A DNA stretch of 64,000 nucleotides from an uncultured Eubacteriales bacterium (GTDB lineage: Bacteria > Bacillota > Clostridia > TANB77 > UBA1234): NCBI GenBank assembly GCA_964400015.1, contig CAYNRR010000001.1:113275-177274 (forward strand), written 5' to 3'. How positions within the stretch are numbered: position 1 is the stretch's first letter; each line of letters starts with the position of its first letter. This document shows, one piece after another, positions 4,091-59,797 of this stretch. The notes under the pieces were generated by a model. The model did no database searches and was not told the origin of the DNA. It saw only the letters and a program-made list of their open reading frames with translations. Both the position numbers and the translations under genes were made by a program.

Positions 4091-4116
4091 CATTTAACGG
4101 ACGTCCCTAGTGTAGC
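4091..4116 (-). repeat. Copy 1 of the conserved 26-nt GC-rich motif ACATTTAACGGACGTCCCTAGTGT; it overlaps the stop codon of giant gene 1
   Basis: The 26-mer is identical to the copy at 15808 and contains the palindrome GGACGTCC. On the minus strand, CAC-TAG encodes the final His and the stop of the gene. Confidence 0.8.
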
Positions 4117-7100
4117 AGAAGGCCTTGGGTTGGTCCTATGAAGTTGGCTTGATACCACATTACTATTCCGTTATTGTTTTGGATGGATGTGTTTCCTGTG
4201 ATTGTTGGTGTTGATGTTTGGGTACTGTTTTCACCGATGATTACTAGTCCTTCGTTGTTTATGATACCTACTTCATTTCCTGTTATTTGTGTTTTTCCAT
4301 CTACTTTTAGTGTACTTTGTTTTGTGCTGTAATCTTTGTAAGTGTATGATGCGTAGTAATTTACGTTGCTGTCTACCATTGTTATTGTGTCTTTATTTTT
4401 TGATGTGATGTTTACTGGTTTTTCTTTTGAGTTTGCATCTGTTCTTACTGCTGTCCAATTGTCTTTGTGATAGTATATTCTGTATTTGTCGCCTTCTATT
4501 TCAGTTGCGATCTTGTATTGTTCTTCTGGCACTGTAATTGTTGCGCCATATGGATATGTAGCTTCTGATACTAGTTGTTCTCCATTTATTCCGTTGTCGT
4601 TGTAGAATCTTACTACATATTCTAAAACGTTCCATGTTGCGTATAGCGTCATGTCTTCGTTTCCTGTATATAAATCATTTGCTTTATATGTTTTTCCTGT
4701 ATTATCTTCTTTTGTATTCCATGAAGTGAAGTTATAACCAGCTTTTTCAAATCCATTTGCTCTTATTCTTATATCTGTATCTTTTATCTTTATTTGATAA
4801 TTTGTTTTACCTGTATAAGTTGTTGCATTTGGCTTGTAATGTATTTCATATGCTGTAATTGTTATTGCTGTAGTATTTCCTTCATAGTCTTTTACTTCAA
4901 CTGTGTAGTCACCTGATTTTGAAATATCAAATTTACCTGTTGCTGCTCCTGTTTCTGTATTCTTTTCTATTTCAATTGGGTTACCATTTACAATGATTTC
5001 GTTTACACCCGTTTCTTTGTCTTTACCTGTTACTGTTATTGTTGCTGTTCCATCTTCGTTATAATTTACTGAAGAATTTACTTCTTCTGGCGCTTCAAAG
5101 TCTCCTAATGAGATTGTTGCTTTATTTGATTCAACTGTATAATAATATGTTCCATTGCTTTGATATGCACTTCTTACAACTAGTTTGTACACGCCCTCGT
5201 CTGCATTTGTAAACGATGTTTTTGTATATGACAACGAATTTGCACCAGGTATTGCTACGCCGTCTTTGTACCATTGATATACTACATCATCTGCTATATA
5301 ACCATCTATTACTTCTACTTCAAAGTGTAATGTATCTCCACGTGCAATTTCGGCATCTGCTAATGTTGTTGTTATTTCAAATGGATAATACACTTTTGTT
5401 CTTTCTGCTGTATATTCTACATCTGGTGTTAATAAGTCTGCGACTGCTTTTGACTCTGTATAAATTATTGAATTTCTAGCCAAGTCAATAAAACGACTCT
5501 TACTTGAACTTTCACCTAATTCAGTTGACTTTAGGTACACAGCTTTCAAACTTCTACAATAGATAAATGCATGTCCTTGTATTTTATTTACACTTGCTGG
5601 TATTGTTATTTCTTCTATTGCTGTAGTTTCAAATGCACCCCAGTCTATTATTTCTAAAGTATCTGGTAATGTTACAGTTTTCAAGTATTGATTCTTTGCA
5701 AATGCAGATACACCAATGCTTACTGTACCATCTATTACTGTTGTTGTTGCATTTGTTCTTGCTGTTGGATATGCTATCAATTTATTTCCACCATACAAAG
5801 TATCATTTACAACTTTAAATCTTGTATTTTCCGCATCTACTGTAAATGATGTTAACATTGTGTCATAGAACGGATTATCATTAGCTATTGTCGTTACATT
5901 TTTAGGAATATTTACATTTCCTTTTAATGCACGCATTTTTGCAAATGCACTTGCACCGATTGCTTCCAATGAATCTGGAAGTTTCAAGCTTTCTACGTTA
6001 ATCAATCTATAGAATGTGTAATCGCCATATCTCGTTACGCCTTCTTCTAAATCTAGTTCTACTATAGTTTCACTATATTTATCAAACCATGGAATGTCTG
6101 TAAGAATCTTATCATCAATATATTCTAAAACAAACGATTTTGCTTTTCCTGTTCCACCAACTACAAGTTTATATCTTGTATTGTCTGTTATTCCATCGCC
6201 TTCCACGATTTTTATTCCTGCATATACATTGTCAACTCCTGCTGTTTTTGAGATATCCCAATATTCTATCCATGTATCATTAGTTTCTAAGTACATTTCT
6301 TTTATTGTTTCTGTTTCATTTTCAACTAAGTGATATCCTGATTGCAACGTTGTTGCTTTACCATCTAATGTTATCTTTTTATTTGTCGATACTAACTTAC
6401 CGTCATAAATATTCAAAGTTGCGTCATTATCTACTACTACATTTGCTCCTTCTATATATGGAACTTCTAGCGAAACTGTATTATCTTCTTTACCTAATGT
6501 TAATGTTCCTACATTATGAATCGTAGCTTCCGAATTATTTGAAATCACTTTACCATTTCTTAATTCAGCTTTACCATTTGCAAGCACTTCAATTGCATGG
6601 CCAGCATTAGAAGCTGATTCAATTCGAACATTACCATCAATTATCAATTCGCCTTCCACAGATATTGTTGAAGTTGTTGTTAATCCAATTTCATGTTTAA
6701 TGTAGCTCATATTTTCAGCAGAATTAGCAATTGTAAGTTTTCCTCTAACGACAATTCCGTCATTGCATACTAATTCTTTACCATTTAAATCAAGTGTATA
6801 ATCAGAATCTGCATAAATCACAATTTCTTTTATAACAGAATTTTCAAAATCACTAGAAATCATATTGTTTTCTAATAATTTAATTGTTGCTGTCGCTACA
6901 CCTTTACTGTTTAAAGTTTCAATTGCTTTGTACACATCAGAATAATATTCTGTTTTTCCATCACTAGTCACTTCTACTGTTATCTTTTCATTTGTTGTTA
7001 ATGTATACACTTCAGAAACATTTCCAGCATTATCTCTTACCCATGTATACCAAGTGCCATTTTCAGGAATCAATAATTCATTGCGTGTTTGCCATGTAGC

Positions 7101-10100
7101 TGTTGAAATATCATTTGTAGCAGAAATTGCATATGCTTCTATTCCACTTGAAATTCCGCCATCATACGTTACAAGCGAAATAACTTCATTTACGCCATCG
7201 TATCTTATTCTTTCATGTGTTACTATCTCTGGAACTGTTTTATCCAATTTAAGTTCAAATGTTGCTTCAGATGAAATGTCTTCATTATCTGCAACACCTC
7301 TTGCTTTTGCACGAATGATTGTAGATAAAGTTTCTTGTTCATAATTAAATGTATTTCCTGTTGTCCATTCAGAACCATTTATTGAATAAATGTATTCAAT
7401 AGCACCTTCTGTATACTCACTTCCACCTATTGTTACCACAACATTACCATTTGCCCAATTTCCTGAAGATATTTGAGTAGCACCTTGTGTTACCGTTATT
7501 GTTGGTACAGTTGGAATATATCTTACATATACATCTCTTTTTACACTCATTAGAGCATTACCAGTAGGCTTGTAAACTGTCCAAACCACTTCATATCTTC
7601 CTGAAACATTTTCTTTAACAGTGCTTGTAGAACTTAAAGTGTAGCCTAATCCTGTATAAATATCTGAATTTGCTACAGTTAAACCTGCAACAGTAGCACC
7701 TGATTCAGTATAAATTTCACCTGGTTTCATCACTACATATTCTTCGCCTTGAAGTTCAAGAATTGGTCTAATTCTATCTGCACCTAACTCACTTTCATAA
7801 TTTTCTGCATTCTCATAATTCGTTTCAGATACTGGATCTAAAACATACAAGATTGCATTTGGCAAGTCTTTCAAACCTGTATTTTCAGGAAGCTTAATTG
7901 CATCTGAAGGTGATGTTATTTGTCTTTCTGTAATGATGGCTTTTAGGCTATCGCAATCTTCAAATTGGCCTTTATCTAGCCATGCAAAGTCTTTGCCTAG
8001 TTGGATAATTTCAAGCGAAGTACAATCGGCAAACATATAGCTCATGTCTGCTACATTATTTGTATTGAACTTTTCGCCTAGGTTTAGTTCTGTTAAGGAA
8101 TAACACTCGTTAAACATACTATACATATCTGTTACATTACTTGTATCAAAGTTATCGCCCAAATTTAATTCTGTTAACGATTCGCAGCAATAAAACATTT
8201 CGCACATATCTGTCACATTACTTGTATCGAATTTTTCTCCCAAATTCAATTTTGTTAATGAATAACACAAGCTAAACATCTCGTCCATTCCTGTTACATT
8301 ACTTGTATCAAAGTTTTGACCCAAATTCAATTGGGTTAATACGTAACACGAACAAAACATATAATTCATGTCTTCGACGTTACTTGTATAAAATTTCTCT
8401 CCTAAGTTTAGTTCTGTCAATGAACTACAGCCACCAAACATCGCATGCATATTTACTACATTACTTGTATCAAAGTTTTTGCCCAAGCTTAACTCTTTTA
8501 GTGACCAACAATCACTAAACATATAGCCCATATCTATTACATTACTTGTGTCAAAGTTGTCGCCCAAGTTTAATTCTACAAGTGATTTACAAGCCCCAAA
8601 CATTCCATACATATCTGAAACATTGCTTGTATCAAAATTATCGCCCAAGTTTAGTTCTGTTAATGATCTACACTCTTCAAACATTCCATACATATCTGTA
8701 ACATTACTTGTATTAAAGTTTTCACCCAAGTTTAAGTTTGTTAACGAATCACAATCATAAAACATTTTAAACATATTTGTTACATCTCTTGTATCTAACA
8801 ATTCCATTCCTTTTATTTCAGTAATTTTAGTATACTTATTAAACAAATTCTCACCTGATGTAACTTTTATTTCAGATTTTGCCACTATGTATTGGTCATA
8901 ATATTGTGTGCCATCTTTTACAACTGATGGTACCAAGTATGATGTTACTGTACCTGTTGCGTTTTCAGCAGACACATCCCATTTAGCAGTAGTATTTGAT
9001 GGTACTGTATTTGTGAATATAATTTTTGTTATTCTATCTGCTGTGTAATCTTTTTCATTTGCTCTTTTTGCACCAAGTGCATAGTATACAAATTCTCCAT
9101 CGATATAATCGTAGCTTTCTCTTGCCATCAACTGAGGTGCAATATTTGCTACTGTTACTGTTCTTGTTAATTTATCTATCCTTGTTGTCATGTTTGCACT
9201 ATCTGTATATTGCAAATTGTATGTTATTGTTTTTGTTCCTAGTGTAGAAGTGTCTACTGGCAAACCTGTAACTTCAACCGTGTAACCTAAATTGTTGTAG
9301 TTTGCAGCATTTGTGCTATTCCAATCAAATACTGTTGCTCCAGCATCTACATATTCAGTATCTAATCCTATTTTGGCTGGATTAGCTCCTAATAAACTCA
9401 TGAAAGGCTTAATCTTTTCTACACCCAATACTGAAATATATGTGCTGTTTGCTTCATACAATGCTTCATCAGAAGCTGTTGGCACGTAAAGAATTGCCTT
9501 TTTGCCCGATAACCCATTATTGGTTGCAATTTGCATCAAATCGCTTTCGCTACTTACACTACGTAAAGAAATTATTCGAGTAAGTTTTGTCATGTTGCCA
9601 AACATATAAGTACCAGTAAGTCTATCGAAATTTGATGGTAATACTAACGTTTCTAGTGAAGTACAATAGTCAAACATATACCCCATATCTGTTACTTGGC
9701 TTGTATCAAATTTATCGCCTAAGTTTAGTTCTGTTAAGGAATTACAATAATAAAACATATCGTTCATATTTGTTACATTGCTTGTGTCAAAGTTTTCTCC
9801 TAAGTTTAGTTCTATTAAGGAACTACACTCTTCAAACATTCCAGACATGTATGTAACATTACTTGTATTAAATTTTTCTCCTAAGTTTAGTTCTGCCAAT
9901 GACTCACACCACCCAAACATATTACTCATGTCTGTTACTTGGCTTGTGTCAAATTTATCTCCCAAGTTTAGTTGTTCTAACGAATAACATTCGCAAAACA
10001 TAATTTCCATATCTGTTACATTTCTTGTATCAAAGTTTTCCCCTAGATTTAATTGTTCTAACGAATAACACCCGCAAAACATACCGTACATATTTGTTAC

Positions 10101-13100
10101 TTGGCTTGTATCAAATTTATCGCCTAGATTTAATTGTTCTAACGAATAGCATTCGCCAAACATAATTTCCATATCTGTTACATTACTTGTATCAAACTTT
10201 TCTCCCAAGTTTAGTTCTACTAAAGAATTACAGTAGTAAAACATATCGCTCATATCTATTACATTGCTTGTATCAAATTTTTCGCCCAAGTTTAGTTCTG
10301 TTAAGGACTCACACGCCTCAAACATCTCACACATATCTGTTACATTACTTGTATCAAATTTTTCACCTAAGTTTAGTTCTGTTAAGAAATTACAGCCGCC
10401 AAACATATCATACATATATATTACATTGCTTGTATCAAACTTATCGCCTAAGTTTAGTTTTGTTAAGGAACTACAACAGTAAAACATCCCCCCCATATCT
10501 GTTACGTTACTTGTATCAAATTTTTCACCAAAATTTAGTTCTGTTAAGGAATTACAGTAATGAAACATACTATCCATATTTGCTACATTGCTTGTATCAA
10601 ATTTTTCACCAAAATTTAGTTCTGTTAAGGAATTACAGTAGTTAAACATACCGTTCATATTTGCTACATTGCTTGTGTCTATCAATTCCATTCCTTTTAT
10701 TTCAGTAATTTTAGTATACTTACAAAACAAGTTCTTACCTGATGTAACTTTTATTTCGGATTTTGCTACTATGTATTGGTCATAATATTGCGTGCTATTT
10801 TTTATAACTGATGGTACCAAGTATGATGTTACTGTACCTGCTGCACTTGATAATGATGCATCCCAATTAACAGTAGCATTTGATGGTACTGTATTTGTGA
10901 ATATAATTTTTGTTATTCTATCTGCTGTGTAATCTTTTTCATTTGCTCTTCTCGCACCAAGTGCATAATATACAGCTTTTCCATCGATATAATCGTAGCT
11001 TTCTCTTGCCATTAGCTGAGGTGCAACACTTACTGTTACTGTTCTTGTTAATGTATCTATTATTGAGGTTATGTTTGTCTTATTTGTATATTTTAGTGTA
11101 TAAGTTATTGTCTTATCTCCTAGTGTACTTGTATCTATTGGTAATCCTGTAACTTCAAGTATATATCCTAAATCGTTGTAGTTTGTAGCATTTGCATTGT
11201 TCCAATCAAACACTGTTGCTCCTGGATCTACGTATTCAGTACCAACATTTACAGTGTCTGGATTATTGCCTACCAGACTCATGAAAGGTTTAATCTTTTC
11301 TGCACCTAATACTGAAATATATGTGGTATTTGCTTCATACAATGCTTCATCAGAAGCCGTTGGTACGTAAAGAATTGCCTTTTGGCCAGATAACCCATTG
11401 TTAGTTGCAATTTGCATCAAATCGCTTTCGCTACTTACGCTACGTAAAGAAATTATTCGTGTAAGTTTTGGCGTGTTATCGAACATATAACTACCAGTAA
11501 GTCTGTCGAAGCTTGATGGCAATACTAGAGTTTCTAGTGAAGTACAACCAGAAAACATACGATACATTTGTTCTACATTGCTTGTATCAAACTTATCGCC
11601 TAAGTTTAGTTTTGTTAATGATGTGCAGCGATAAAACATTGCTTCCATATTAGTAACTTTACTTGTGTCAAAGTTTATACCCAAGTTTAGTTCTTTTAAC
11701 GAATTGCAGTTATAAAACATATAAGACATAACTGTTACTTGGCTTGTGTCAAACTTTTCGCCTAAGTTTAGTTCTGTTAAAGAACTACAGCCGTAAAACA
11801 TACTATCCATAGTTGTTACTTTACTTGTGTCAAAGTTTATACCCAAGTTTAGTTCTTTTAACGAATTACAGTTATAAAACATATAAGACATTCTTGTTGT
11901 TACTTTACTTCTGACAAAATTTTTGCCAAAATTTAGTTCTGTTAAAGATGTACAGTTGCCAAACATCCACGACATATCTATTACATTGCTTGTGTCGAAA
12001 TTGGTACCTATATTTAATTTTGCTAATGAATTGCAATTAGCAAACATATTTACCATACTTGTTACTTGGCTTGTGTCAAACTTTTCGCCTAAATTTAGTT
12101 CTGTTAACGAATTGCAATTATAAAACATATAACTCATATCTGTTACTTGGTTTGTGTCAAACTGGGTACCTATATTTAATTTTGTTAATGAATTGCATTT
12201 AGCAAACATAGATTTCATATTTGCTACTTTACTTGTATCAAACTTTCTACCCAAGTTTAATTCTTTTAGCAAATAGCAATTGTAAAACATAGAACTCATA
12301 TTAGTTACTTGGCTTGTGTCAAAATTTGTACCTATATTTAATTTTGTTAATGAATTGCAATTAGCAAACATATTTACCATACTTGTTACTTTACTTGTAT
12401 CAAATTTTCCACCCAAGTTTAACTCTTTTAACGAATTGCAATTATAAAACATACAAGCCATACTTGTAACATTGCCTGTATCAAAATTCTCACCCAAATT
12501 TAATTCTTTTAACGAAGTACAGTTATAAAACATAAAATTCATATTTGTTACATTACTTGTATCAAATTTAGATATATCTAATGTGGTTAGTTTTTTACAA
12601 TCAAAAAACATTCCATACATATCAGTAGCATTATTAGTAGTTAAATATTCTATATTTTCTATTTGAGTCAAATTTGAATAGCCCTTAAATAAAATGTATG
12701 TATCTCTAGCATTTATTGTATCAGTTGCAACAAAGTACTGTGCATAGCATTGTGCACCGTCAATTATTGTTGACGGTACTAAATATGATGTTACCGTACC
12801 TGGTGCACTTGTTGAAGATGCATCCCAACTAACAGTGGCATTTGATGGTACTGTGTTTGTGAATACTACTTTTGTTATAAGGTCAGGTGAATATTCTGTT
12901 TTTCCAGCTCTATACGCACCTATTGCGTATTCATATGAAACATAACCATTAACTACATCTCTCCCCATTAACTGAGGTGCAACATTTACTGTTACTGTTC
13001 TTGTTAATGTATCAAATGTTGAAGTTGTGTTTGTACTATCCGTATATTGTAAATTGTATGTTATAGTTTTGGTTCCTAGTGTAGAAGTATCTACTGGTAA

Positions 13101-15182
13101 ACCTTTGGCTATATATGTTAGTCCTATATTTTGATATTTACTTGCTTCTTCATTAGTCCAACCTGCTATTGTTACGCCTTGATCAATATACGTAGCATTT
13201 TCAACAGTGCTTACTGAATCAGAACCGACAAGTTCAAGGATTGGCTTAATTCTGCTAGCACCTAAGATTGGTCCTAAATCTGTAATCTCATAAAAAGCTT
13301 TGGCAACTTGTGGTGCTACATAAAATATCGCATTTGTATTTTCAATTCCTGTATCTGACGAAACTTCCATTATGTATGACTGCGAAGGTGCTCTTCTTAA
13401 TGAAATTATTCGTGTAAGGTTTGACATGTTACCAAACATAGAAGTACCAGTAAGTCTGTCAAAGCCTGATGGTAATACCAAGGTTTCTAATGAACTACAG
13501 TGAGAAAACATGTAATTCATTGTTGTTACATTGCTTGTATCAAAGTTTGTACCAAAATTCAAATTTTTCAAAGAAGTACAGTGAGAAAACATCCAGTTCA
13601 TGTTAGTTACATTGCTTGTATCAAACTTATCGCCTAAGTTTAGTTCTGTTAAGGAACTGCACTCGTAAAACATATTACTCATGTCTGTTACATTTTCTGT
13701 GTTAAATTTTTCTCCCAAGTTTAATTCTGTTAAGGAACTACATGTAGCAAACATACAATGCATACTTTTTACATTACTCGTATTGAAATTTTTTCCCAAA
13801 TTCAGTTCTGTCAATGAATTACACTCTTGAAACATAAGATACATATATGTTACATTGCTGGTATCAAAGTTTTCTCCCAAATTCAACTTTTTTAAAGAAT
13901 TACAGTACAAAAACATGCCATACATATCTGTCACATTGCTAGTATCCAGCAACTCTATTCCTTCTATTTCTTTAACGTTAGTATAATTTTTAAACAACAG
14001 TCTACCTGATGCAAGTTTTATTTGTGTGTTTGCTACTATGTATTGAGCATAATACTGTATTCCATTATTCTTTACCGATGGTACTAAGTATGATGTTACT
14101 GTGTTTGGTGCACTTGTTGATGATACATCCCAACTATCAGCGATATTTGTTGGTACTTTATTTGTAAATATTACTTTTGTTATAAGGTTTGTAGTATATT
14201 CAGTTTTTCCCGCTCTATATGCACCAATCACAACATCTCCATTTTCTCTCTCCATCAATTCACTTTGTGTAGTCGCATATACGCTTATATTCTCTCCTAG
14301 TTGTGTTGTTATGTTGCCTACAAGTTCTGTTTCAACAAATATTGTTATATTTTTATCAACACTTAATATGTTACACACTTTTCCTTTTTCATTTTCTGTT
14401 ATTGTTATTGCACTATCTCCAGATGCAAGTGTTGATTCTATGCTTATTATCTCATAATCATCATTAGGAGCAATATTAAAGTTTAATGCTGTTCCTTGTG
14501 CTACTGTTGTGTTTCCTACTATTTCTTCTCCGTTTGTATAAAATACTTTGTAGTTTTCACCGTCAAATGTTATTTTTCTTGTATTTACTGTGATGATTAT
14601 ATATGTAGAGAAACTGCCTGTTGTAAATTCTATTTCTTCTGCTGTTAATTTGCTTATTGGCAATATCTCATAGTTTTCGTTGTTCATAATATGCATAAGT
14701 GCATATGTTTTTGAATCGTCTATGTCAAGGTTCATGTCTAAGTTTGAAAGTTTTACTTTTACTTTTTGCCCATACGCAGTTGGTTGATATTTTAGGTTTT
14801 CATTTGTTACATCGATATCGAATGCGTCTACTACTTGTTCTGGTAAAATATCTTTTTTATAGCTTTGTGCTAATGATACTGCGTCTTCTTTATTTAGTTT
14901 AGCAACTTCTACTTGCGAATTTTTGATTAGTACACCTGTGACTTGAACTTTTTCATTTGTAGAAGTTTGTTCCGATTCTATCTCATCATATTCTACGTAG
15001 TTTGAGAAAGGAAGCTTTTCACTACACAAGTCACAAATCATATCGATGTCACTATCGATATGTTCGCAAGATATTAACTTATTTTTTTCAGACTTTCTTA
15101 TAAAGCCTGCTCCTATTCCAGCCGTGGCTACCAGCACCACTATGCTCATTAAAATTAAGATAATCTTGTTCTTTTTCATCAT
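4107..15182 (-). CDS. Giant (3,691 aa) BspA-family / DUF285-repeat surface protein (putative adhesin)
   Basis: An N-terminal signal anchor MMKKNKIILILMSIVVLVATAGIGAG is followed by a Cys cluster. There are four tandem modules, each an Ig-like segment, then about seven 27-aa repeats LNLGxKFDTSNVTxMxxMFxxCxSLxE (DUF285/TIGR02167-type), then a conserved roughly 250-aa segment. The C-terminal part has beta-helix-like, Ig-like (YQWYKDG) and Listeria/Bacteroides Flg_new repeats (GYNFTSWN...LYATW). No LPXTG motif is present. Confidence 0.8.
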   Translation of the reverse strand: MMKKNKIILILMSIVVLVATAGIGAGFIRKSEKNKLISCEHIDSDIDMICDLCSEKLPFSNYVEYDEIESEQTSTNEKVQVTGVLIKNSQVEVAKLNKEDAVSLAQSYKKDILPEQVVDAFDIDVTNENLKYQPTAYGQKVKVKLSNLDMNLDIDDSKTYALMHIMNNENYEILPISKLTAEEIEFTTGSFSTYIIITVNTRKITFDGENYKVFYTNGEEIVGNTTVAQGTALNFNIAPNDDYEIISIESTLASGDSAITITENEKGKVCNILSVDKNITIFVETELVGNITTQLGENISVYATTQSELMERENGDVVIGAYRAGKTEYTTNLITKVIFTNKVPTNIADSWDVSSTSAPNTVTSYLVPSVKNNGIQYYAQYIVANTQIKLASGRLLFKNYTNVKEIEGIELLDTSNVTDMYGMFLYCNSLKKLNLGENFDTSNVTYMYLMFQECNSLTELNLGKNFNTSNVKSMHCMFATCSSLTELNLGEKFNTENVTDMSNMFYECSSLTELNLGDKFDTSNVTNMNWMFSHCTSLKNLNFGTNFDTSNVTTMNYMFSHCSSLETLVLPSGFDRLTGTSMFGNMSNLTRIISLRRAPSQSYIMEVSSDTGIENTNAIFYVAPQVAKAFYEITDLGPILGASRIKPILELVGSDSVSTVENATYIDQGVTIAGWTNEEASKYQNIGLTYIAKGLPVDTSTLGTKTITYNLQYTDSTNTTSTFDTLTRTVTVNVAPQLMGRDVVNGYVSYEYAIGAYRAGKTEYSPDLITKVVFTNTVPSNATVSWDASSTSAPGTVTSYLVPSTIIDGAQCYAQYFVATDTINARDTYILFKGYSNLTQIENIEYLTTNNATDMYGMFFDCKKLTTLDISKFDTSNVTNMNFMFYNCTSLKELNLGENFDTGNVTSMACMFYNCNSLKELNLGGKFDTSKVTSMVNMFANCNSLTKLNIGTNFDTSQVTNMSSMFYNCYLLKELNLGRKFDTSKVANMKSMFAKCNSLTKLNIGTQFDTNQVTDMSYMFYNCNSLTELNLGEKFDTSQVTSMVNMFANCNSLAKLNIGTNFDTSNVIDMSWMFGNCTSLTELNFGKNFVRSKVTTRMSYMFYNCNSLKELNLGINFDTSKVTTMDSMFYGCSSLTELNLGEKFDTSQVTVMSYMFYNCNSLKELNLGINFDTSKVTNMEAMFYRCTSLTKLNLGDKFDTSNVEQMYRMFSGCTSLETLVLPSSFDRLTGSYMFDNTPKLTRIISLRSVSSESDLMQIATNNGLSGQKAILYVPTASDEALYEANTTYISVLGAEKIKPFMSLVGNNPDTVNVGTEYVDPGATVFDWNNANATNYNDLGYILEVTGLPIDTSTLGDKTITYTLKYTNKTNITSIIDTLTRTVTVSVAPQLMARESYDYIDGKAVYYALGARRANEKDYTADRITKIIFTNTVPSNATVNWDASLSSAAGTVTSYLVPSVIKNSTQYYDQYIVAKSEIKVTSGKNLFCKYTKITEIKGMELIDTSNVANMNGMFNYCNSLTELNFGEKFDTSNVANMDSMFHYCNSLTELNFGEKFDTSNVTDMGGMFYCCSSLTKLNLGDKFDTSNVIYMYDMFGGCNFLTELNLGEKFDTSNVTDMCEMFEACESLTELNLGEKFDTSNVIDMSDMFYYCNSLVELNLGEKFDTSNVTDMEIMFGECYSLEQLNLGDKFDTSQVTNMYGMFCGCYSLEQLNLGENFDTRNVTDMEIMFCECYSLEQLNLGDKFDTSQVTDMSNMFGWCESLAELNLGEKFNTSNVTYMSGMFEECSSLIELNLGENFDTSNVTNMNDMFYYCNSLTELNLGDKFDTSQVTDMGYMFDYCTSLETLVLPSNFDRLTGTYMFGNMTKLTRIISLRSVSSESDLMQIATNNGLSGKKAILYVPTASDEALYEANSTYISVLGVEKIKPFMSLLGANPAKIGLDTEYVDAGATVFDWNSTNAANYNNLGYTVEVTGLPVDTSTLGTKTITYNLQYTDSANMTTRIDKLTRTVTVANIAPQLMARESYDYIDGEFVYYALGAKRANEKDYTADRITKIIFTNTVPSNTTAKWDVSAENATGTVTSYLVPSVVKDGTQYYDQYIVAKSEIKVTSGENLFNKYTKITEIKGMELLDTRDVTNMFKMFYDCDSLTNLNLGENFNTSNVTDMYGMFEECRSLTELNLGDNFDTSNVSDMYGMFGACKSLVELNLGDNFDTSNVIDMGYMFSDCWSLKELSLGKNFDTSNVVNMHAMFGGCSSLTELNLGEKFYTSNVEDMNYMFCSCYVLTQLNLGQNFDTSNVTGMDEMFSLCYSLTKLNLGEKFDTSNVTDMCEMFYCCESLTELNLGDNFDTSNVTDMYSMFNECYSLTELNLGEKFNTNNVADMSYMFADCTSLEIIQLGKDFAWLDKGQFEDCDSLKAIITERQITSPSDAIKLPENTGLKDLPNAILYVLDPVSETNYENAENYESELGADRIRPILELQGEEYVVMKPGEIYTESGATVAGLTVANSDIYTGLGYTLSSTSTVKENVSGRYEVVWTVYKPTGNALMSVKRDVYVRYIPTVPTITVTQGATQISSGNWANGNVVVTIGGSEYTEGAIEYIYSINGSEWTTGNTFNYEQETLSTIIRAKARGVADNEDISSEATFELKLDKTVPEIVTHERIRYDGVNEVISLVTYDGGISSGIEAYAISATNDISTATWQTRNELLIPENGTWYTWVRDNAGNVSEVYTLTTNEKITVEVTSDGKTEYYSDVYKAIETLNSKGVATATIKLLENNMISSDFENSVIKEIVIYADSDYTLDLNGKELVCNDGIVVRGKLTIANSAENMSYIKHEIGLTTTSTISVEGELIIDGNVRIESASNAGHAIEVLANGKAELRNGKVISNNSEATIHNVGTLTLGKEDNTVSLEVPYIEGANVVVDNDATLNIYDGKLVSTNKKITLDGKATTLQSGYHLVENETETIKEMYLETNDTWIEYWDISKTAGVDNVYAGIKIVEGDGITDNTRYKLVVGGTGKAKSFVLEYIDDKILTDIPWFDKYSETIVELDLEEGVTRYGDYTFYRLINVESLKLPDSLEAIGASAFAKMRALKGNVNIPKNVTTIANDNPFYDTMLTSFTVDAENTRFKVVNDTLYGGNKLIAYPTARTNATTTVIDGTVSIGVSAFAKNQYLKTVTLPDTLEIIDWGAFETTAIEEITIPASVNKIQGHAFIYCRSLKAVYLKSTELGESSSKSRFIDLARNSIIYTESKAVADLLTPDVEYTAERTKVYYPFEITTTLADAEIARGDTLHFEVEVIDGYIADDVVYQWYKDGVAIPGANSLSYTKTSFTNADEGVYKLVVRSAYQSNGTYYYTVESNKATISLGDFEAPEEVNSSVNYNEDGTATITVTGKDKETGVNEIIVNGNPIEIEKNTETGAATGKFDISKSGDYTVEVKDYEGNTTAITITAYEIHYKPNATTYTGKTNYQIKIKDTDIRIRANGFEKAGYNFTSWNTKEDNTGKTYKANDLYTGNEDMTLYATWNVLEYVVRFYNDNGINGEQLVSEATYPYGATITVPEEQYKIATEIEGDKYRIYYHKDNWTAVRTDANSKEKPVNITSKNKDTITMVDSNVNYYASYTYKDYSTKQSTLKVDGKTQITGNEVGIINNEGLVIIGENSTQTSTPTITGNTSIQNNNGIVMWYQANFIGPTQGLLLH

Positions 15183-15290
15183 TAGTTAGTCATCCTTTCA
15201 GTTTAAAAGTTTAAAACCTTTCACTAAGTAAAATATTGTAGTTTAAAACTGTGTTGCACATTCCGTTTAAAGCTATTAAGGTCTTTTATC
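14450..15290. repeat. Near-identical duplicate (about 840 bp) of the 5' end and leader of giant gene 2 (partner at about 52810..53650); it includes a remnant of the DGR RT 3' end
   Basis: The first ~290 codons of both giant genes, the RBS and about 100 bp of leader are essentially identical. The embedded plus-strand ORFs 14699..14902 and 53058..53261 are identical. Positions 15190..15290 encode the last ~23 codons of the RT (..ALNGMCNTVLNYNILLSERF*) although no RT gene is present at this locus. Confidence 0.9.
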
Positions 15291-15585
15291 CTATTCTCGC
15301 TAAATAAATTATATTTATTATTTTTTATCAAATCAACATCACACACGCGCGTATGTATGAATATATGTAGGGTTGCAAAAATTTCTGTTTATTTTATTCT
15401 TACGGAAGTATTACCTTTATTTATATTTTTTCTGAAGCGAGCTTCACATATTAAATTTTAATTTATCTTTAATTACAAAGTAATTACAAACGGCGTAATA
15501 GTTTTGTAACAAATTATAAAAACACTTATTCCCCTAGAACTTTAGAAACTCATATATTTTTTATATGGACCATTTTTTATTCTCA

Positions 15586-15640
15586 CACATTTTCCTAACG
15601 ACTTTTTAAAGAACTCGCACATTTTCCTAACGACTTTTTA
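15586..15640 (-). promoter_or_regulatory. Two 23-bp perfect direct repeats (TAAAAAGTCGTTAGGAAAATGTG on the minus strand) spaced 32 bp apart in the giant gene 1 upstream region; a candidate regulator-binding site
   Basis: Exact repeats at 15586-15608 and 15618-15640, about 400 bp upstream of the gene 1 start. Confidence 0.35.
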
Positions 15641-15682: not shown

Positions 15683-15720
15683 ACAAAAAATCCCACTCTG
15701 CTTTCAGAGTGAGATTTGAC
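15683..15720 (-). terminator. Rho-independent terminator after trpS
   Basis: Stem TCCCACTCTG / CAGAGTGAGA (one mismatch) followed by a T-run on the minus strand. Confidence 0.55.
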
Positions 15721-20173: not shown

Positions 20174-20674
20174 TTATTTGTCATTTCTTTCTTTTATGTA
20201 TTCTAAGCACTTCTTTTCCAATATTTCAAAATTACATATATTAAATTTTTCTCTAGTCCTTTTATTCAGACCCAATTTATATACCATATTAGCTAATTTT
20301 TTTATTTTTTCCACATTTAAATTACAATATTTTAATTCTTTCATTAACAGGTTTCTATATTTCTCGTTTTCCTTTGAAAAGTCTTTTTGGCTTAAGTATT
20401 CTATTGGACATGGAAACATGAATGAAAATCTAAGAGAAGAAATTGCTTTTATTTGATTTGTCTTTTTATCTTTTTCTTTTATCAAAAATACTGTATGAGC
20501 TTTTTTGTTATATGAAGATACTGGAGCAAAATAATTAAAATTGTTAATTGTGAGAACTATTCCACAAAAAAATTTCTTATGTTTTTCATAATCTATATCT
20601 GGTATTTTATCATCTGCATTTTCTTTTAAATATTTTATATATTCACTATCTACTTCATAAAATTTTAATTTCAA
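20174..20674 (-). CDS. toxN: Type III toxin-antitoxin ToxN/AbiQ-family endoribonuclease toxin
   Basis: (M/L)KLKFYEVDSEYIKYLKE...FCGIVLTINNFNYFAPVSSYNKKAH aligns closely with the ToxN/AbiQ N-terminus. TTG start with an AGGAAG RBS. Confidence 0.8.
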   Translation of the reverse strand: MKLKFYEVDSEYIKYLKENADDKIPDIDYEKHKKFFCGIVLTINNFNYFAPVSSYNKKAHTVFLIKEKDKKTNQIKAISSLRFSFMFPCPIEYLSQKDFSKENEKYRNLLMKELKYCNLNVEKIKKLANMVYKLGLNKRTREKFNICNFEILEKKCLEYIKERNDK

Positions 20675-33708: not shown

Positions 33709-36700
33709 TTAGTTTATTGTGTATACTGCAGTGTTTCCACATTTGTCTATTGTTTCTAGTTTAGTTCCACTTACAAGTTCTATATCGTATTTTGCTTTTA
33801 AGTCTGATTTTGTTATGCTTCCGTTGCTTAGTTTTATTGTTTTACCATCTATCTTGATTACGTTCATTGAGTGATTGTCTGCATCTGTTACAGTAACTGT
33901 TGTGCTACTAACTGTTATAACTGGTTTGTTTAATTCAACTACTACATCTGTTTCTAATTCTAGTTTTGCAGTTGCTATCTTATTTCCTGCTTTATCTACT
34001 TCTACAGTATCTCTAAAGCATAGATATACGATACCTTCTCCAGCTATATTTTGAGCTGTTACGTAATAGTATCTACCACTCATTGCTTGTGAACCTTCTT
34101 GAATTGGTCCGTATACTACTGGTGTTTTTGCTAGGACAATGCCTTCACCGTAGTCACCTGTGTATGTTTCTGCTCCTGTAGTATCTTTTACTTTGATGTA
34201 TAAGTCGTCTGCTGTTAATTCTTTTCCATAGTTATAGTTTGCATCTTTTGATAAGAATTTGAATGAAGTACTATTCTCACCATTGTTACCTATATACTGT
34301 GCAAGTAATTTTGTTGTTGCTGTTGATGTTTTACTTATTCTATTTGCTTTGTCTTTAACCCATACGTATATTGTCTTTTCTCCATCACCTATTGGTAATG
34401 TCCAAATTACGTCTTCTGTATATGGTACCCATTCTTCTGAATCTAATACTTGATTATTTGTTAATAGTTTGTTACTTATTAAGATTTCTTTTACGCCTGT
34501 ATCATCTTCGGCATCTACTTTTATCATTACAACTGAACTGTTTGCAAAGCCTCTGTCGTTGTCTACTATTTCTAGTGATTTGATTACTGGTGCTGATGCA
34601 TCAACGTCTGTAATGTCTATCACTGAATTGTATTTTCCGATATTACCTGCATCGTCAATTGCGTATAAATAATATTTACCGTTTGATGTTACTGAAATGT
34701 CTAACTCAACTTTTGTCATTATTTTGTTTAGTTCTTTCCATTTTGTTGGTTCTACTTCGTATTTGCTTAATAAGTATCCTCTTACACCTGACGCATTATC
34801 TTTTACTGTAACAGTTAATGTTACTTCTTTTTGATTTGCCATCGCTGTGTATGATAAATTCTCAAATGTTGGTGATTCTTTATCAATGTTAGTTATTGTA
34901 ATACTTTCCTCTGCTGTGTTTCCTGCGAAGTCTATTGCTTTGAATGTATATGTTCCATTTTGTTCAACTTCTACTGTTATCATGTTGTTTACAAGTGTTA
35001 CTTCTGTTTCACCGTAGTATGCGTTTTGAACACCTGATTCTTCATCTATAAACTTAGCTTGAATTGTAACTTTATCGTTTGTCCAATCTGGAGTTAAGTT
35101 TTTCAATTCAATTATTGGTTTTGATACATCGAAGTCTAGGTATGCTTTTTCACGATCTCCTACTAGTTTTTTAATTAGTGCGTATCCTGGAACAACTTTC
35201 ACTTCATTTGTGTAAAGTGATCTGTATGCTTCACCTTCGATAACACCATCGTAGAATTCTAGTTTTCCTCCTACGTTTCTTAAACCATCTTTTGTACTAT
35301 AAATTATTGGTGATTCTTTACTTATTGATTCGTCATTTTTACCTGATACATAAGTTCCTTTTTCGATATATACACCTGTTGTTGTTCCTTTGTTTCCAGA
35401 TAATAATCTTGAAGTGATTTGACCACCTGTTACATTTACATTACCATTAGCTACATACAATGCGTATGTTTTGCCTTCTATTGTTGAAGATGTAATTGTA
35501 CCGTTTTCCATTTTTAATGTGCCTTCGTTATACATACCATAACTTGTGCCCTCTGTGTTTACAGCACTTATAGTTCCACCTGTTATATTTACTTCGCCTT
35601 TATTTAATACACCGTATGCTAATCCTGTTTTTAATGTCTGTGCTCTTATTACACCACTGACTAATTTCAATGTGCCTTCATTTTCTATTGCACATGCATC
35701 TAATCCTGTACTAATAGTACTTAGTTCACCTGCACCAGAGTCAATAACGGTTAATGTACCATTGTTCTTAATCAATCTTGTGTCTTCTGATTGGTCACAG
35801 TTTAAGCTAACTTTCTTACCATTTATATCAAGTGTTACTAACGTGTTAGCTTTAAATGTTGCAACTTTCATTGCATCTTCATTTAATAGCATTGTTAATT
35901 TTCCTGTGCTTGTAATATATTCTGTTGCATCACTTAATCTTGGGAAGTATTTATTTTCTTCAAAGTCGCTTTCTAAAAGCACTCCACTTCTTGCATATAT
36001 GTTGCCATCTATTGTCTTTGGACCTTTAAATTCACTCTTATTATCAAGTTCATCGTATAGTTCACCATCGAATGATACACATTCTAATTGACCTAAATCA
36101 TCTTTAGTAATTGTATATGTGTATTTGATGTTTCTGCCATCTACTCCATTTGGTTGAAGTTTTATAACAGAGCCACTACCAAATTCTATTGATAATTCTG
36201 GTATTGTTCCTTTTATAGTCAAGAAGTTTTCTGACATTATAGCTGTAATTTCTAATACTGTACCTGCTGAATATGTACCATTTTCACGGTTTGTAACTTT
36301 CAAACTCATTAGTCTTGGTCCGATTTCATCTATCATGATGAAGTCTACATTTATGTCTGGATAGTATTTTGCATACTCTTCCATTGCATTACAGCCTTCA
36401 TAATAATATACTTTAGCATTTTCAGGGAAATTGCTTCCCATTTTTTCAAATACATTTCTAACATTTTCTTCATCAGCTAAAATATTAGCTATCGTTCTAT
36501 ATACTTTCAATGTTTGTAGGTTTTTCAAATTAGCAAATGCATGATGATCAAGTGTTTTTAATTCTGTACATAATATCATTTCGATTTCTGTAATCATATT
36601 ACAATTGCTAAATGCATATGAACCAATATAAGTTACATCTTTAGACATTTCGATACCACTTAGTTTTGAACAGTTTTCAAACACATAACTTTCTATTCTA

Positions 36701-39700
36701 GTTCCACCAATCTCACCATTTATTTTCTCTAGTGTATTGTTGTTATTGAATGCTCCTTCTAATAATGTTGGATTTGATGTTGTAGTAATTGTTACAATAT
36801 TTGAATTGTTTGCAAATGCGTATTCACCAATTGTTTTTACGTTTTCATCTATTGTGTATGTTATGTTTTGATCTCTGTTTGAATGTACATATAAGATGCT
36901 CTTATCCATTGAATATAATGTATAACCATCGTAAATAAATGTTTCTGTTCCGTTTGGGAAAGTTATTTCATAGAAGTTATTTGTTTTTGCAAATGTTGAT
37001 GTTTCAACTTTTGTAAGTGATTTTGGTAACGAGATTTCTCCTACATTTGTCATATCAGCAAGTGTATATTTTTGAAGTTCTGTTACGCCCTCACGCACTT
37101 CTATTTTATTTACTTTTTCTAGGTAATCTTTCCATGGAATATCTTCTTTTGCAAAATATCTTACTGCACCTTCACCCTCAAATATAATCGTGTTATCAAA
37201 TGAGATTGAAGCAAATACTTTGTTTGGCACTACACCAACATCCCATATTGCAGCACATATATTTTCTGCTTTTACAGTTTCCATTGCTACATTACCAGCT
37301 TCGTCTTTTACCCATACAAACCATTCACCATTTTGAGTTGCATATACTACATTTGAAGTGCTCCATACATCTGAATCTAAGATTGGTTGTGTATCAGTTT
37401 GAGTTATTGCATATCCTGCAATCTTATGATTATCTGATGCTATAATTTCAAATTTTTCTCTTTGTGCTTGTGCAACATCTAATGTAATAATCTTTTCAAT
37501 TACTGGTGGTGTTGTATCTTGAACTTTTACATTTCTTGAAAGTTCTGTTCTCGCATTACCATTCAATTTCAAAATATAATTTACTGTTTGATTTCCTAGT
37601 TTTGCTGTATTTACATTTGAGTTAATTTCAACAGTAATATTATCTATATCTGGGTATGTTGATGTTGATGCAAATAATACATCTATCGCATATACACCAG
37701 AGTCTATATATTCTGTTCCAGCCTCAATAGTAATATTTTCATCACCATTTAATCTGAAGATTGAATATATTCTATCTGCAATTGCAGTCCAACTAGCAGA
37801 TTCTTTATACATTTCTTTTTCTAACACATAAACTTTTGTATTTTCATTTAATAATGAAACATTATCAATATCGCATACATAGTCTGCACTTGTAAAGATT
37901 ACAAGTTGTTTCAATGCTGAAGTGTTTTCAAAAGCGTTTGCTTTGATACTTCTTGCATTTTCTAGAATTACTGTACTTAGTGAAGTACAATCTGCAAATA
38001 GATATTCAGGAATTGCTTGTATGTTTGAATTCAATTCAAATATTGTAAGTCCTGTATTTCTAAATGCTTCTCTACCAACCATTGTATAATTATCTTTAAT
38101 ACTTAACTTTTGGATGTTTGTAGCATTCATGAATGCACCTTCGCCAATCTTCTTAATTCCGATTGAAGGACATTCTAAAGAAATTGTTCCTTTTCCTGTT
38201 GCATATTGTATTAAAGTACCCGTTGTAGTATCTAATAACAAGCTGTCTTCATGTACTTTAAATTTAGAAGTTACATTTTCATCGTCTAAAACAATCTTAT
38301 CTATTAAGCTTCCTGCAAATGCACCCTCAGCTATATTATCAATACTTGCTAATATAGTTAGTCTTTCTGTGTCTAAAGCATTTCTAAATGCTCTTGTTTC
38401 AATACTCTTTAATAATTGTGAATTATTAAGTGTAGTAATGTGAGCATTTTCAAAAGCTCCTTCTTTGATTACTCTGACATTTTTATTCGTATCAAGAGCT
38501 TTTAATCCTGTATTCTTGAATGCATTTTCTTCAATTGTTAAAACATTGTATTCAATATTTATTGATTCTAATTTTGTACAATTTACGAATGCATTTTTAC
38601 CTACATGAATTATTGTAGTTGGCAATTCTACAGTTGTTGTATTTACATCTACTACTGGATTTTCATCTAAGCTTTCGATTTCAATTACTCTGTACGCTAT
38701 GCCTCCATCTGTTACTATTTCAGGGAATACTACATTTGTTGAACCTGAATATTTAACAATCTTAGCATAGTTCTTGTCAGTATGTTTTACAAAATCAAAT
38801 CCGTTTTCACTAAAGATTGTTGTTCCCCAACTATCTTCAATTACATCTACTGTTTTGTAAAATTCTCCTGCTGGAGTTCCATAGTAATCTAACGAATAAA
38901 CTATTTGTTTTTCGCCAACAGTTGTTACGTCTATATTAGCATTAACTGTTACTGTAACTCCTTCAGTTTCAATTGAATAGTTGCCTTGTACTTCTTCATT
39001 GAATTCATAATATCCTTTTCCAGTTCTATCAACATATTGAACAATAGTATCATTATGTTCAAACGCAAAGTCATTTGCACCTAATATAATTGTGTCTGTT
39101 GCGTATTGCTCACATATGTTTCCACTCGTATCCATTACCCAAACGTAAAGTATTTTTATACCATTTCCACCTGTAAGTGTATATGCTACTTCTTTTTCGC
39201 CTGCGTAATCTGTCCAACGAGGATCACCTGAAGTAATATTTTCAGATAATGTTGTTTCAATAATAATCTTGCTTATTGCTTTATTATCTGTAGCATCAAT
39301 ATTTAATGTTACATTTTCATTATCTGTTGAAACTTCATTATTGTTGATTACGAAGTTTTTAATTACTGGTTTGATATCATCAATTTCAATAAATTCAGTT
39401 TCACTGCCGTATGCTTTTACGTATTCTACCATTGCATCACAAGATGAATAGTAGTAGATTGGTCCACGGGTTCCTGCAAATACTTTTTCTCCGATTTTAT
39501 TTAACGTTTTTGGTATGTATTGATTTGCAAAGTGTGTGCATCCGTTGAATGCGTAACTTTGAATTTCTTTAACATTTGTTAAATCTAATCTTGATATATA
39601 AATACTATTTGCAAATGCTGCTGCACATATCTTTTGAACGTTTGATGGAATTTCATAATCATTTGTATGTTTAGTTGTATGTACATATAATTCTGTCTTA

Positions 39701-42700
39701 TCAGCATTATACAATGTACCATTTTCATATACTAAATGAGTGTTGTTTCCTAATTCAATATTTTCAAAATTGTTTGTGTATGCAAATGCACCATCTATTA
39801 CTTTTTCAAGTGTGTTTGGTAATGTAATCGTCAATACGTTTGGCATATATCCAAGTAGATAATCGCCAATTGATGTTACACCATCTTCTACTGTTATTGT
39901 TGTAACAGTATCTTTATAATCTTCATACCATGGAGTTTCTTTTTCTGCATAATTTTTAGTTTCGCCATTACCTTTAATAATTAAAGTTTTGCCGTCTAAA
40001 GTAATTATTCCATGTACTGAATTATCTTGGTTTTTGCTTACATCCCATTTGCCTGCTGCAACCCAAGTTGATATTACTTGATAACGTGTTGAAATATTTC
40101 CTGCAGCATCTTTTGCGAAGATGTACCATATTTGGTTTGCATCAACTTTTAGTTTTTCAGATGTTTGCCATCTTGAATCATCTACTGATGGAACTGTATT
40201 TTCAGTAGTAATGATATATGCTGTAACAGCTATATTATCTGTTGCTTTTACTACAAATGTTTGATATGGAGATACCCAATCGCTGTCTGTAGTTACACTT
40301 TCAATAACTGGTGCGATATTGTCTTGAATATCAACTATTCTTTCTATTCTATCAACTTCCACGCCGTTGTACTTAGCAATATAAACAATTGTATTTCTAA
40401 GTGACTTGCTTGGATCAACTGTTCCATCTATTACAAGTTCTAATCCTTTTACAGTAGAACTATTAGCAGATGTTTTTAATGTTTCGCCTGCTAGTTTTAC
40501 ACCATCTTCAACATATTCATTGTTTATTGTCCATACAATTTCTTGATTTCCAATTAGTTCAAGAATAGGTTGAATTTTTTCTGTACAATTTTCATATTGA
40601 CTATATATGCTATCTGATTCATATATAACTTCCATACTTGTTGGTACATAAATTGTTGTGCTATCTGGAATTGAAGTTTTATCTGCTATTGTTACAATAC
40701 CCGTATTGTTTGTAAATACAGCAGTCTTCAATGATGTACAATTTTCAAATGCACTAATAGAGATTGATGGCTTACCTTCTATAACAACTGATTTTAATGT
40801 TGTTATTCCTTTGAATGCCTCAGCCTTTATTGATGTGATTTTTGAATGTATTGAAACATCAGTTAATTTAGAGTTTTCAAATGCACCTTTAGAAATATTA
40901 TTTAAGTTTCTATTAAATGCAAAACTTGTTACTCCTGAATTTAAGAATGCATATTCTCCAATGTTTGTTAATAGTTCTGAATAATTTACTTTTTCAAGAT
41001 TTGTAGCACCTTCAAAAGCATATTCGTTTACTGTATTTGCACTGCTTGAAACATTTACAATTTTTAGTTTTTCAGCATCTTTGAATGCTTTTCTACCTAT
41101 AGTTGTTACACCTTGTGGAATATCGTATTCCTCAAAATCACTAGCTATTGGATACAATACTAACATTTCTTCATCATTTGTTAATAAAGAAATTCCGTCA
41201 TCATCAATTATGAATTTGTTGTTGCCTTCTTCAACTGTAATATCATAAATCTTTGTTGACTCGAATGTATCTAATCCTAAAGCATCTAATGACGCTGGTA
41301 ATTTTAATACAAAGTTTTCTGGCACTCTAACATTTGCGAATGCGTTATCGCCCAAGTATTTTACCATGCTACCAAAATCTATATCACTTATTCTAGCATT
41401 TTTAAATGCTTCTGCTTTAATCTCTCTAAAGTTTGAACCTAATTTAACAAATATTCCGTTCATTAAACCTGCACTTGCGAAAGCATTTTCGTCAATGCTC
41501 ATTACTGCATCCGGTATATCAACATTTTCTAATTCATTAAACTCGGCAAATGCTCTGTTACCTATGTTTATAAGTGTATCTGGTAACTCTACAGTTTCGA
41601 CGATTCTATTAGCTCCTATGCTTTCAACATCAATTACTTTGTATTCAGTTCCATCTAGAGTAACACTAGCTGGTATTCTTAATACTCTTGTAAATTCGCC
41701 TGTATAGCCTGTAATCTTTGCATATTTTCCATTTGTATGAATTACATATGTAAATTCATCTTGAGTAGTACCTTTAGCTCCTGTCCATGAATTTTCGATT
41801 ACGTTTACTGTTCTTGTTAAAGTTTGCATCTCTATGTCGTTAAGCATAACACTATACTTAATTTCATATTCGCCTGAAACTTTATGATTTACGCTACCTG
41901 TTACATTTACAGTAACGTTGCTCTTACTTGTGTATCCACCTTGTACTGATTCAATGTATTTATAATAATCTTTACCAGTTGTGTCTACGTATTGAACTAT
42001 TTCTGCTTGGTTTAACAATTTAACTTCTATATCACCATAGAAAATCGAATCGTTTACAGATGATGAAATGTTTCCACTTGAATCTTTAACCCATACGTAT
42101 ACTGTCTTTGTACCAGTACCACTTGATACTGTATATGGATATTCAGTACCGTTGTAGCTTATCCATTCGCTATTTGCTTTGTTTCTTATTTCTTCATCCG
42201 TATAATATTGTTCAGAAATAAATACGTTTGAAACTTTAACATCATCTTTTGCGATAATTGTTAATGTTACATCTTGACTTATTGTAGAAATATCATCGTT
42301 GTTTATTACAAAAGACTCAATTACAGGTTTAACATCGTCTATTGCAATAAAGTTAGCTTCTTCTGAATTTGCTAAAGCATATTCTTTCATAGTTTCGCAT
42401 GATGTGTAGTAATATACATCAGCTTTGAAACCTTCAAAAGCATCTTCGCCAACACTTGTTATATTCTTGTTTGTTCTAATTTCTACAAGTGTTCCATTTT
42501 CGTAGAATAATCCTGTTACAAGTGTTTTAACTGTATCTGGTATTGTAAAGTCTATCTCTGTATTCTTTTTACTATAAGAATATAATGTTGTTTTGCTTAT
42601 GTCGTATATACTCAACTCGTCTATTGTGAAATGTGTATTACCAGAAATGTTTATTGAAGAATAATTATTTGTTCTATACAATGCTGATTCTGCAATTTCT

Positions 42701-53541: not shown

Positions 53542-53569
53542 TAGTTAGTCATCCTTTCAGTTTAAAAGT

Positions 53570-59779: not shown

Positions 59780-59797
59780 AAAAGCGTGGGGATATAA

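Follow-up and report, generated by a model that had tools for sequence, protein, structure and literature searches.

How did two giant surface-protein genes, lying 38 kb apart, come to begin with the same DNA, and is this common beginning used to exchange the sequences behind it? Both genes are found in a 64,000-nucleotide (nt) stretch of contig CAYNRR010000001.1 (assembly GCA_964400015.1) from an uncultured Eubacteriales bacterium, a stretch that we refer to in full as the window. One of them, gene 2, is located directly behind a diversity-generating retroelement (DGR), while the other, gene 1, is preceded by nothing more of a DGR than the last 66 nt of its reverse transcriptase (RT) gene. 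We found that the two genes share a 5′ block that is identical over 717 nt and diverged beyond, and we propose that it probably goes back to an old segmental duplication, the upstream breakpoint of which lay within the RT gene, and that gene conversion has recently overwritten the 5′ end. The genes and the parts of the block are as follows:

4107 to 15182, minus strand: gene 1, 3691 amino acids (aa), an N-terminal module, then arrays of DUF285/BspA-type leucine-rich repeats (LRR) and bacterial Ig-like domains
33709 to 53541, minus strand: gene 2, 6610 aa, an N-terminal module, an Ig-like array, then DUF285, LRR_5 and Ig-like domains
14297 to 15276, minus strand: copy A of the shared 5′ block, on the gene 1 side, 980 nt, 95.4% identical to 52656-53635
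52656 to 53635, minus strand: copy B of the shared 5′ block, on the gene 2/DGR side, with its perfect tract at 52919-53635, from blastn and base-by-base comparison
14560 to 15276, minus strand: perfect-identity tract in copy A, 717 nt, with 0 mismatches against 38 in the next 230 nt
14297 to 14559, minus strand: diverged, apparently older layer of the gene 1 module, codons 208-295, about 83% nt identity dropping to about 75%

A general scan for repeats was dominated by the 81-nt tandem units of DUF285, and targeted blastn was used instead, alongside a comparison of the whole window with itself. Both match 14297-15276 to 52656-53635, at 95.4% identity over 981 nt and with an offset of 38359, and the self-comparison identified it as the sole repeat in the window with at least 85% identity and a length above about 110 nt. 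Both copies form the 5′ ends of the two largest open reading frames (ORFs) of the window, and the start codons correspond (15182 in gene 1, 53541 in gene 2). The original prediction, made from the sequence alone, had described essentially identical DNA at 14450-15290 and 52810-53650. Its claim of near-identity at the DNA level, as opposed to similarity within a protein family, is confirmed by the self-comparison, and the repeat is where it had been placed; the upstream edge, however, had been overshot by 14 nt, about 110 nt of non-identical sequence had been included and about 150 nt of weaker homology had been missed.

Compared base by base, the block shows two layers of identity. The first 717 nt (15276-14560 against 53635-52919) contain no mismatch, whereas the adjoining 230 nt contain 38 (about 83% identity), and similarity is lost at about 14297, which corresponds to about codon 295. 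The upstream edge is abrupt at 15276/53635, and the 60 nt farther out are only 32% identical. If the 16.5% divergence of the adjoining part applied throughout, the probability of a 717-nt run without mismatch would be about 1e-56. Furthermore, the tract stands far above the background between the two paralogs, with 100% over 717 nt compared to about 83% in the adjoining sequence and 66-80% elsewhere between the genes.

In the perfect part of the block, 66 nt from the end of the RT gene are followed by a spacer of 28 nt, which holds a ribosome-binding site, and by 623 nt of coding sequence. All synonymous sites within it are identical, and so are the RT fragment and the spacer, which are non-coding at gene 1. 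This indicates a copy made at the DNA level and not conservation at the protein level. In the proteins, residues 1-207 are identical and residues 208-295 diverged: codons 1-300 hold 12 synonymous and 28 non-synonymous differences, every one of them at codon 208 or later, with about 22 of the 28 non-synonymous ones within codons 208-295. The original prediction had the first ~290 codons as shared and near-identical; homology does extend to about codon 295, but identity ends at residue 207. It had also pointed to identical plus-strand ORFs at 14699 and 53058. These are indeed identical, but merely from lying in the perfect tract, and carry no independent meaning; the one at 14699 (67 aa) is antisense and of low complexity.

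A repeat of this kind calls for caution, for a perfect 717 nt exceeds the length of short reads and the contig comes from an uncultured organism, so that copy A, or its perfect identity with copy B, might be the product of assembly or polishing. Copy A, however, runs in frame into another 3400 codons of gene 1, its diverged 3′ part (about 83%) joins smoothly, and its flanks are unique on both sides. With a mis-join via a direct repeat, the interval would be lost or doubled and this layout would not result, while polishing is able to inflate identity but not to create homology. We consider an artefact of either type very improbable.

Are the two genes related beyond the block? Behind the module, gene 2 carries an Ig-like array of about 330 residues (residues ~296-630), with TTYQWQYR motifs, that also occurs in P0002 and P0003 but is absent from gene 1. 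Past this array the DUF285 super-modules of both genes align again at 66-80% nt identity (12973-12030 with 51650-50706 at 76%, 11504-11041 with 50388-49925 at 80%), which shows paralogy of the whole genes; gene 1 and gene 2 are thus paralogous along much of their length, although their C-terminal parts are unrelated. The original prediction had assigned different repeat and domain payloads to the two proteins. This holds for the Ig array and the C-termini, but the rest is not unrelated, being built from the same domain families.

Judged by sequence identity, the ~83% layer of the module appears to be about as old as the rest of the genes, and the 717-nt tract a much younger overlay. Within the diverged layer, gene 2 has G or C where gene 1 has A or T at 23 of the 38 differences, and gene 1 shows an AT-biased drift across this stretch. 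We read 14560-15276 as a probable recent gene-conversion tract, its end at codon 207 falling near a predicted boundary between two beta-sandwich domains.

From which locus did the shared sequence originate? Upstream of gene 2, and on the same strand, we found a complete DGR, with a target gene carrying the variable repeat (VR), two accessory genes, the template repeat (TR) and the RT:

55739 to 57172, minus strand: target gene of the DGR, 477 aa, VR at 55805-55908 (C-terminus), from the TR/VR comparison
55225 to 55665, minus strand: MutS_I-like (MSL) accessory gene, 146 aa, MutS_I E=3e-8
54861 to 55238, minus strand: Avd-like accessory gene, 125 aa, bAvd E=5e-7, under the Pfam gathering score
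54727 to 54830, minus strand: DGR TR, 85.6% match to the VR
53570 to 54517, minus strand: DGR RT, 315 aa, RVT_1 E=2e-16

The RT stop is located 28 nt before the start codon of gene 2, and no terminator was found between them. TR and VR differ at 15 positions, 14 of which are adenines in the TR. Scanning the window with the TR, its adenines treated as wildcards, detected a single VR, the one in the 477-aa ORF. With no second VR in the window, the two giant genes are not targets of the DGR, and annotation should not list them as such. The DGR architecture with MSL and Avd ('Architecture D') and the MSL class have been described by Wu et al. 2018 (PMC5758913). The donor locus holds the complete set of this type, but the duplicated block is no DGR component, comprising neither TR nor VR, and the sole contribution of the DGR to the copy was a piece of its RT gene, carried along as a bystander. 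A literature search on DGRs together with DUF285 gave nothing usable.

The fragment and the spacer that follows it form the leader end of the block at gene 1:

15211 to 15276, minus strand: RT 3′-end fossil ahead of gene 1, 66 nt, comprising 21 codons (IALNGMCNTVLNYNILLSERF) and the stop, identical to 53570-53635
15183 to 15210, minus strand: 28-nt spacer that contains the ribosome-binding site GAAAGGA, without difference between copies A and B

At the gene 2 locus, 53570-53635 is the end of an intact 315-aa RVT_1 ORF; the RT ORF is intact at copy B only, and there is no RT gene at copy A. The RT of a related locus, L001, is 75% identical to that of the window, and its C-terminus (KIKLSGMTNTIINFKSLMKESF and stop) aligns with the fossil. 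This conservation marks the 66 nt upstream of gene 1 as a true 3′ end of an RT gene, as the original prediction had maintained for the shared segment at gene 2, although the tail upstream of gene 1 measures 21 codons plus stop and not the 23 codons then counted. It should not be annotated as a second or degenerate DGR. Within the spacer, the core TTGAAAGGATGACTAC is conserved in L001, L005 and L009.

An RT gene at the donor locus, and no terminator between it and gene 2, make a read-through transcript plausible, and the DGR RT might have copied such a transcript (RT 3′ end plus gene 2 5′ end) into cDNA that then recombined into gene 1. DGR RTs, however, make their errors at adenines of the template, and this signature, seen between TR and VR in 14 of 15 differences, is missing from the copy: all 303 adenines of the 717-nt tract are preserved, and in the older layer only 8 of the 38 differences fall on gene 2 adenines, though A makes up 44% of the bases. 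DGR RTs are, moreover, highly specific for their own TR RNA, and the downstream end of the block is a decay of homology, not the end of a cDNA. Involvement of the DGR RT in the copying is unlikely on this sequence evidence, and to the retro-duplication as a whole we attach hardly any credence.

Next we consider the direction of the copy. Scans recovered three module loci in genomes and five in metagenomes, none of them from the same species, while scans of viral contigs returned no module. The three GTDB genomes with the module have one copy each. The related metagenome contigs L001-L003 and L010, with a module identity of about 48-51%, have the target, MSL, Avd, TR, RT, a 27-nt spacer and the module gene in the same order as at gene 2, where the spacer measures 28 nt. 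On the TrpRS side, that is, upstream of gene 1, the closest relative is L014 (TrpRS 92% identical in aa; nt identity 87%), which is syntenic through MetRS-TatD-TrpRS as far as window position 15800; beyond the synteny it encodes a membrane protein of 150 aa and a large protein that begins with another N-terminus. L015 and L016 (TrpRS 87% identical) hold an 11,275-aa DUF285 protein with an ordinary signal peptide, and none of the TrpRS-syntenic loci of L014, L015 and L016 has the module.

Furthermore, over residues 206-297 gene 2 is nearer than gene 1 to 7 out of 7 relatives (55% versus 45% identity for the closest two, about 40% versus about 34% for the rest). Collectively, the synteny of RT and module in L001-L003 and L010, the module-less TrpRS loci and the closer relationship of gene 2 to the relatives argue that gene 2 is the native copy, which has changed little, that gene 1 is derived, and that the copying originally proceeded from the gene 2/DGR locus. 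We regard this direction, which was also that of the original prediction, as well supported by the comparisons, and the 66-nt RT fossil is what gives the direction of the module's move.

At its upstream edge the copied block meets sequence of the TrpRS side. The order upstream of gene 1 is TrpRS gene, terminator-like hairpin, promoter-like site and copied block:

15688 to 15717, minus strand: terminator-like hairpin after the TrpRS gene, conserved in L014
15341 to 15356, no strand assigned: palindrome ACACACGCGCGTATGT directly next to the −35 element, with a single occurrence in the window, possible operator
15308 to 15336, minus strand: promoter-like site of gene 1, sigma-70-like TTGATT-17-TATAAT, 10/12 matches, by consensus match only

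The promoter-like site is outside the copied block, the edge of which lies about 30 nt downstream of the −10 element, and L014 has a similar palindrome motif and promoter arrangement. The hairpin would separate TrpRS from the gene 1 transcription unit. A search for junction microhomology found the 7-nt AATAGGA near both upstream edges; in AT-rich sequence this is indistinguishable from chance.

These surroundings bear on a further possibility, namely that the whole DGR was duplicated and that a later deletion upstream of gene 1 spared only the last 66 nt of the RT. The DGR core is indeed polymorphic in relatives, being present in L001 and missing from L009, L005 and L017. But the core-less relatives keep no RT fragment, their junctions lying past the RT stop, and upstream of gene 1 there is no remnant of a target, TR, Avd or MSL. 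Instead, the TrpRS terminator and an L014-like promoter region are found directly at the block edge. Whole-DGR duplication also takes one event more than a duplication starting inside the RT, and we hold it to be unlikely.

Under the history that we propose, the module (about 295 codons) and its leader would be native to the gene that immediately follows an MSL/Avd-type DGR. A segment starting 66 nt within the RT ORF would have been duplicated and would have landed behind a resident promoter downstream of TrpRS, creating gene 1, or at least the gene 1 5′ end. The copies would then have diverged to 66-83% nt identity, with gene 1, which is without the Ig array, changing faster. Much later, we infer, a non-reciprocal homologous exchange, that is, gene conversion presumably of the RecA type, would have overwritten the first 717 nt, with the RT fossil, the ribosome-binding site and codons 1-207 included. 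As a result, the two proteins would have their translation-initiation region, their membrane anchor and a membrane-proximal stalk in common but be expressed in different transcription contexts, with gene 1 on its own promoter and gene 2 behind the DGR operon.

Several points weigh against this history. The perfect tract carries no polarity, and the direction of the latest conversion is unreadable from it. A single recent event, combining an illegitimate upstream junction with homologous downstream resolution in older paralogous sequence, might leave much the same pattern. Mis-mapped reads in consensus polishing might slightly inflate the perfect identity, the gene 1 promoter is a candidate by consensus match only, and the copy count is that of the window, so that further copies could exist elsewhere in the genome.

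The second part of the opening question is whether the shared 5′ end is put to use. The original prediction had taken it as a homology arm for swapping surface-exposed payloads between the two loci, which would amount to programmed antigenic variation with the 5′ block maintained for exchange between two expression sites. The perfect 717-nt tract is evidence that the loci recombine, the module heads very different payloads in other lineages, and the 94-nt leader plus about 620 nt of coding sequence could be likened to the conserved 5′ regions of the Campylobacter fetus sap genes. The copies are, however, direct repeats 38 kb apart, and a crossover between them would delete MetRS, TrpRS, TatD, an enzyme of the MurA/AroA family and RlmH. 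A 3′ homology arm is absent, the C-termini being unrelated and the internal blocks just 66-80% identical; the two copies in the window are both complete genes, with no silent cassettes in the window, and neither a recombinase gene nor an invertible promoter is found nearby. The payload behind the module varies by lineage (DUF285 in L009, Big_2/fn3 in L006 and L012), but this reflects long-term evolution by domain shuffling and not switching. With direct repeats spanning MetRS and TrpRS, no second arm and two complete copies, the idea of a working arm for payload swapping is not supported, and we judge programmed variation at these loci to be quite improbable.

Known systems help to place the case. 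In Helicobacter pylori, babA and babB are paralogous adhesin genes at separate loci, with near-identical 5′ regions that are homogenised by non-reciprocal exchange, and gene conversion of bab-type genes can carry flanking non-coding sequence along. The genes studied here may be analogous in being paralogous adhesin genes with a near-identical 5′ part. The bab genes, however, have homology at both ends, middle segments are exchanged and chimeras are documented, whereas only the 5′ arm exists here and the proteins are giant LRR/Ig proteins of Gram-positive type. The sap genes of C. fetus have a conserved leader and approximately the first 600 bp of coding sequence in common, with divergent 3′ parts and an N-terminal part for cell-surface attachment, and many cassettes in opposing orientations surround one promoter on an invertible segment. 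The likeness to sap is in layout only, namely the conserved leader and 5′ coding block; here, in contrast, two complete genes in direct orientation lie 38 kb apart in their own transcription contexts, with essential genes between them. A literature search on the sap conserved region gave nothing usable. The several cassettes and the loss-free geometry of programmed cassette systems of the sap, pilE/pilS or vlsE type are absent from the window.

Taken together, ordinary duplication and gene conversion in giant surface-protein genes of an uncultured gut Clostridia bacterium is the likely explanation. For uncultured gut Clostridia, the locus provides a clean and dated case of the assembly of giant adhesin genes, in which a rare N-terminal anchor module has shifted between loci along with its leader, and the two proteins would have one common export and anchoring end in different transcription contexts. 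A more far-reaching scheme would make the leader and anchor of the DGR-linked gene a 'master' 5′ cassette that is copied repeatedly onto other giant adhesin genes and so keeps them identical at the end used for export and anchoring, with slow shuffling of payloads and promoters. Occasional exchange, for example by unequal sister-chromatid recombination, would then join alternative payloads to the DGR operon or to the regulated promoter on the TrpRS side. We give this scheme an outside chance at best.

What does the module itself look like? Giant BspA-like/DUF285 LRR surface proteins resemble both genes in that the latter consist mostly of DUF285, LRR_5 and bacterial Ig-like domains; the difference is the common 295-residue N-terminal module, for which a Pfam search with residues 1-295 returned no family. 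Among 5.8 billion proteins, homologs of the module form three clusters only, at 39-48% identity and all from human-gut metagenomes. An alignment of the module sequences shows a basic N-terminus and a hydrophobic helix of about 22 residues, which we read as a putative signal anchor. After it, KLISC-x-H-x8-C-x2-C is invariant in 5 of 5 module sequences (residues 36-53; region of 15065-15068 in the window), and the beta-rich sequence of the module is conserved as well. The C-x-H-x8-C-x2-C part might be a metal-binding knuckle. LISC resembles a lipobox, but seven charged residues stand between it and the hydrophobic helix.

AlphaFold2, run on a shallow alignment, predicted two beta-sandwich domains at about residues 60-200 and 200-290 with a mean pLDDT of 67.6. 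Foldseek against the PDB gave no significant match, the best having E = 1.5e-3 and TM scores of at most 0.25 to stalks of Gram-positive adhesins and pilins. Because these matches are weak, no function is assigned to the module from its fold; a role as membrane-proximal stalk would be a reasonable, if unproven, reading of the model.

A riboregulator shared by the two leaders was considered and rejected, the leader RNA being unstructured (z = +0.76), and an Rfam search of the whole window matched no family. Upstream of the leader, a GC-rich alternating purine/pyrimidine palindrome (ACACACGCGCGTATGT and variants) is located directly upstream of the −35 elements of surface-protein genes in three organisms, at 15341-15356 in the window, about 2985-3005 in L014 and about 420-440 in L004. 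Given its single occurrence in the window, ACACACGCGCGTATGT may be an operator. Farther out in the intergenic region between TrpRS and gene 1, at 15582-15640, there are two tandem 27-nt direct repeats (CTCRCACATTTTCCTAACGACTTTTTA) with a spacing of 32 nt.

Downstream of the module, the repeat arrays have a structure of their own. Gene 1 holds, at 7900-14200, about 50 tandem 81-nt (27-aa) DUF285/LRR units arranged in super-modules of about 1.9 kb that are repeated 3-4 times, and parts of gene 2 are built likewise. The first super-module of gene 2 most resembles the second of gene 1 (76-80% nt identity) and not the first, a pattern of matches that suggests internal shuffling of modules.

Among close strains of the relatives, some have and others lack a 2.1-kb DGR core, comprising MSL, Avd, TR and RT, between the target and module genes, with flanks that are 93-98% identical (L001 1614-3753 versus L009 9755-9775). 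At least two distinct core-less junctions exist, one leaving an 84-nt spacer in L009 and the other, in L005 and L017, a spacer of 22 nt. The core-less strains retain the target gene together with its VR and the hairpin that follows it. In-frame stops interrupt the DGR-adjacent module gene at codon 296 in L005 and L017 and at codon 374 in L001-L003, while L009 has an intact ORF of 1887 aa. The interrupted genes could represent pseudogenisation or on/off variation.

The 38 kb between the two copies encode TrpRS, TatD, MetRS, ToxN, MgtC, an enzyme of the MurA/AroA family, RlmH and an SLH protein. These genes, plus MinC, a penicillin-binding protein and YlmH, show that the window is chromosomal. 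The ToxN-family type III toxin gene is located at 20174-20674, between MetRS and MgtC; Rfam at the gathering threshold found nothing at this gene, and no search aimed at upstream antitoxin RNA repeats was made. At 59385-61676, 68-nt inverted repeats (94% complementary) flank an ORF of 250 aa and an AbiEii-family toxin gene (60544-61503), an arrangement resembling a small toxin-antitoxin or defence island with inverted repeats as its borders. Next to it lies a gene for an AAA_14/DUF4143 ATPase (58118-59317).

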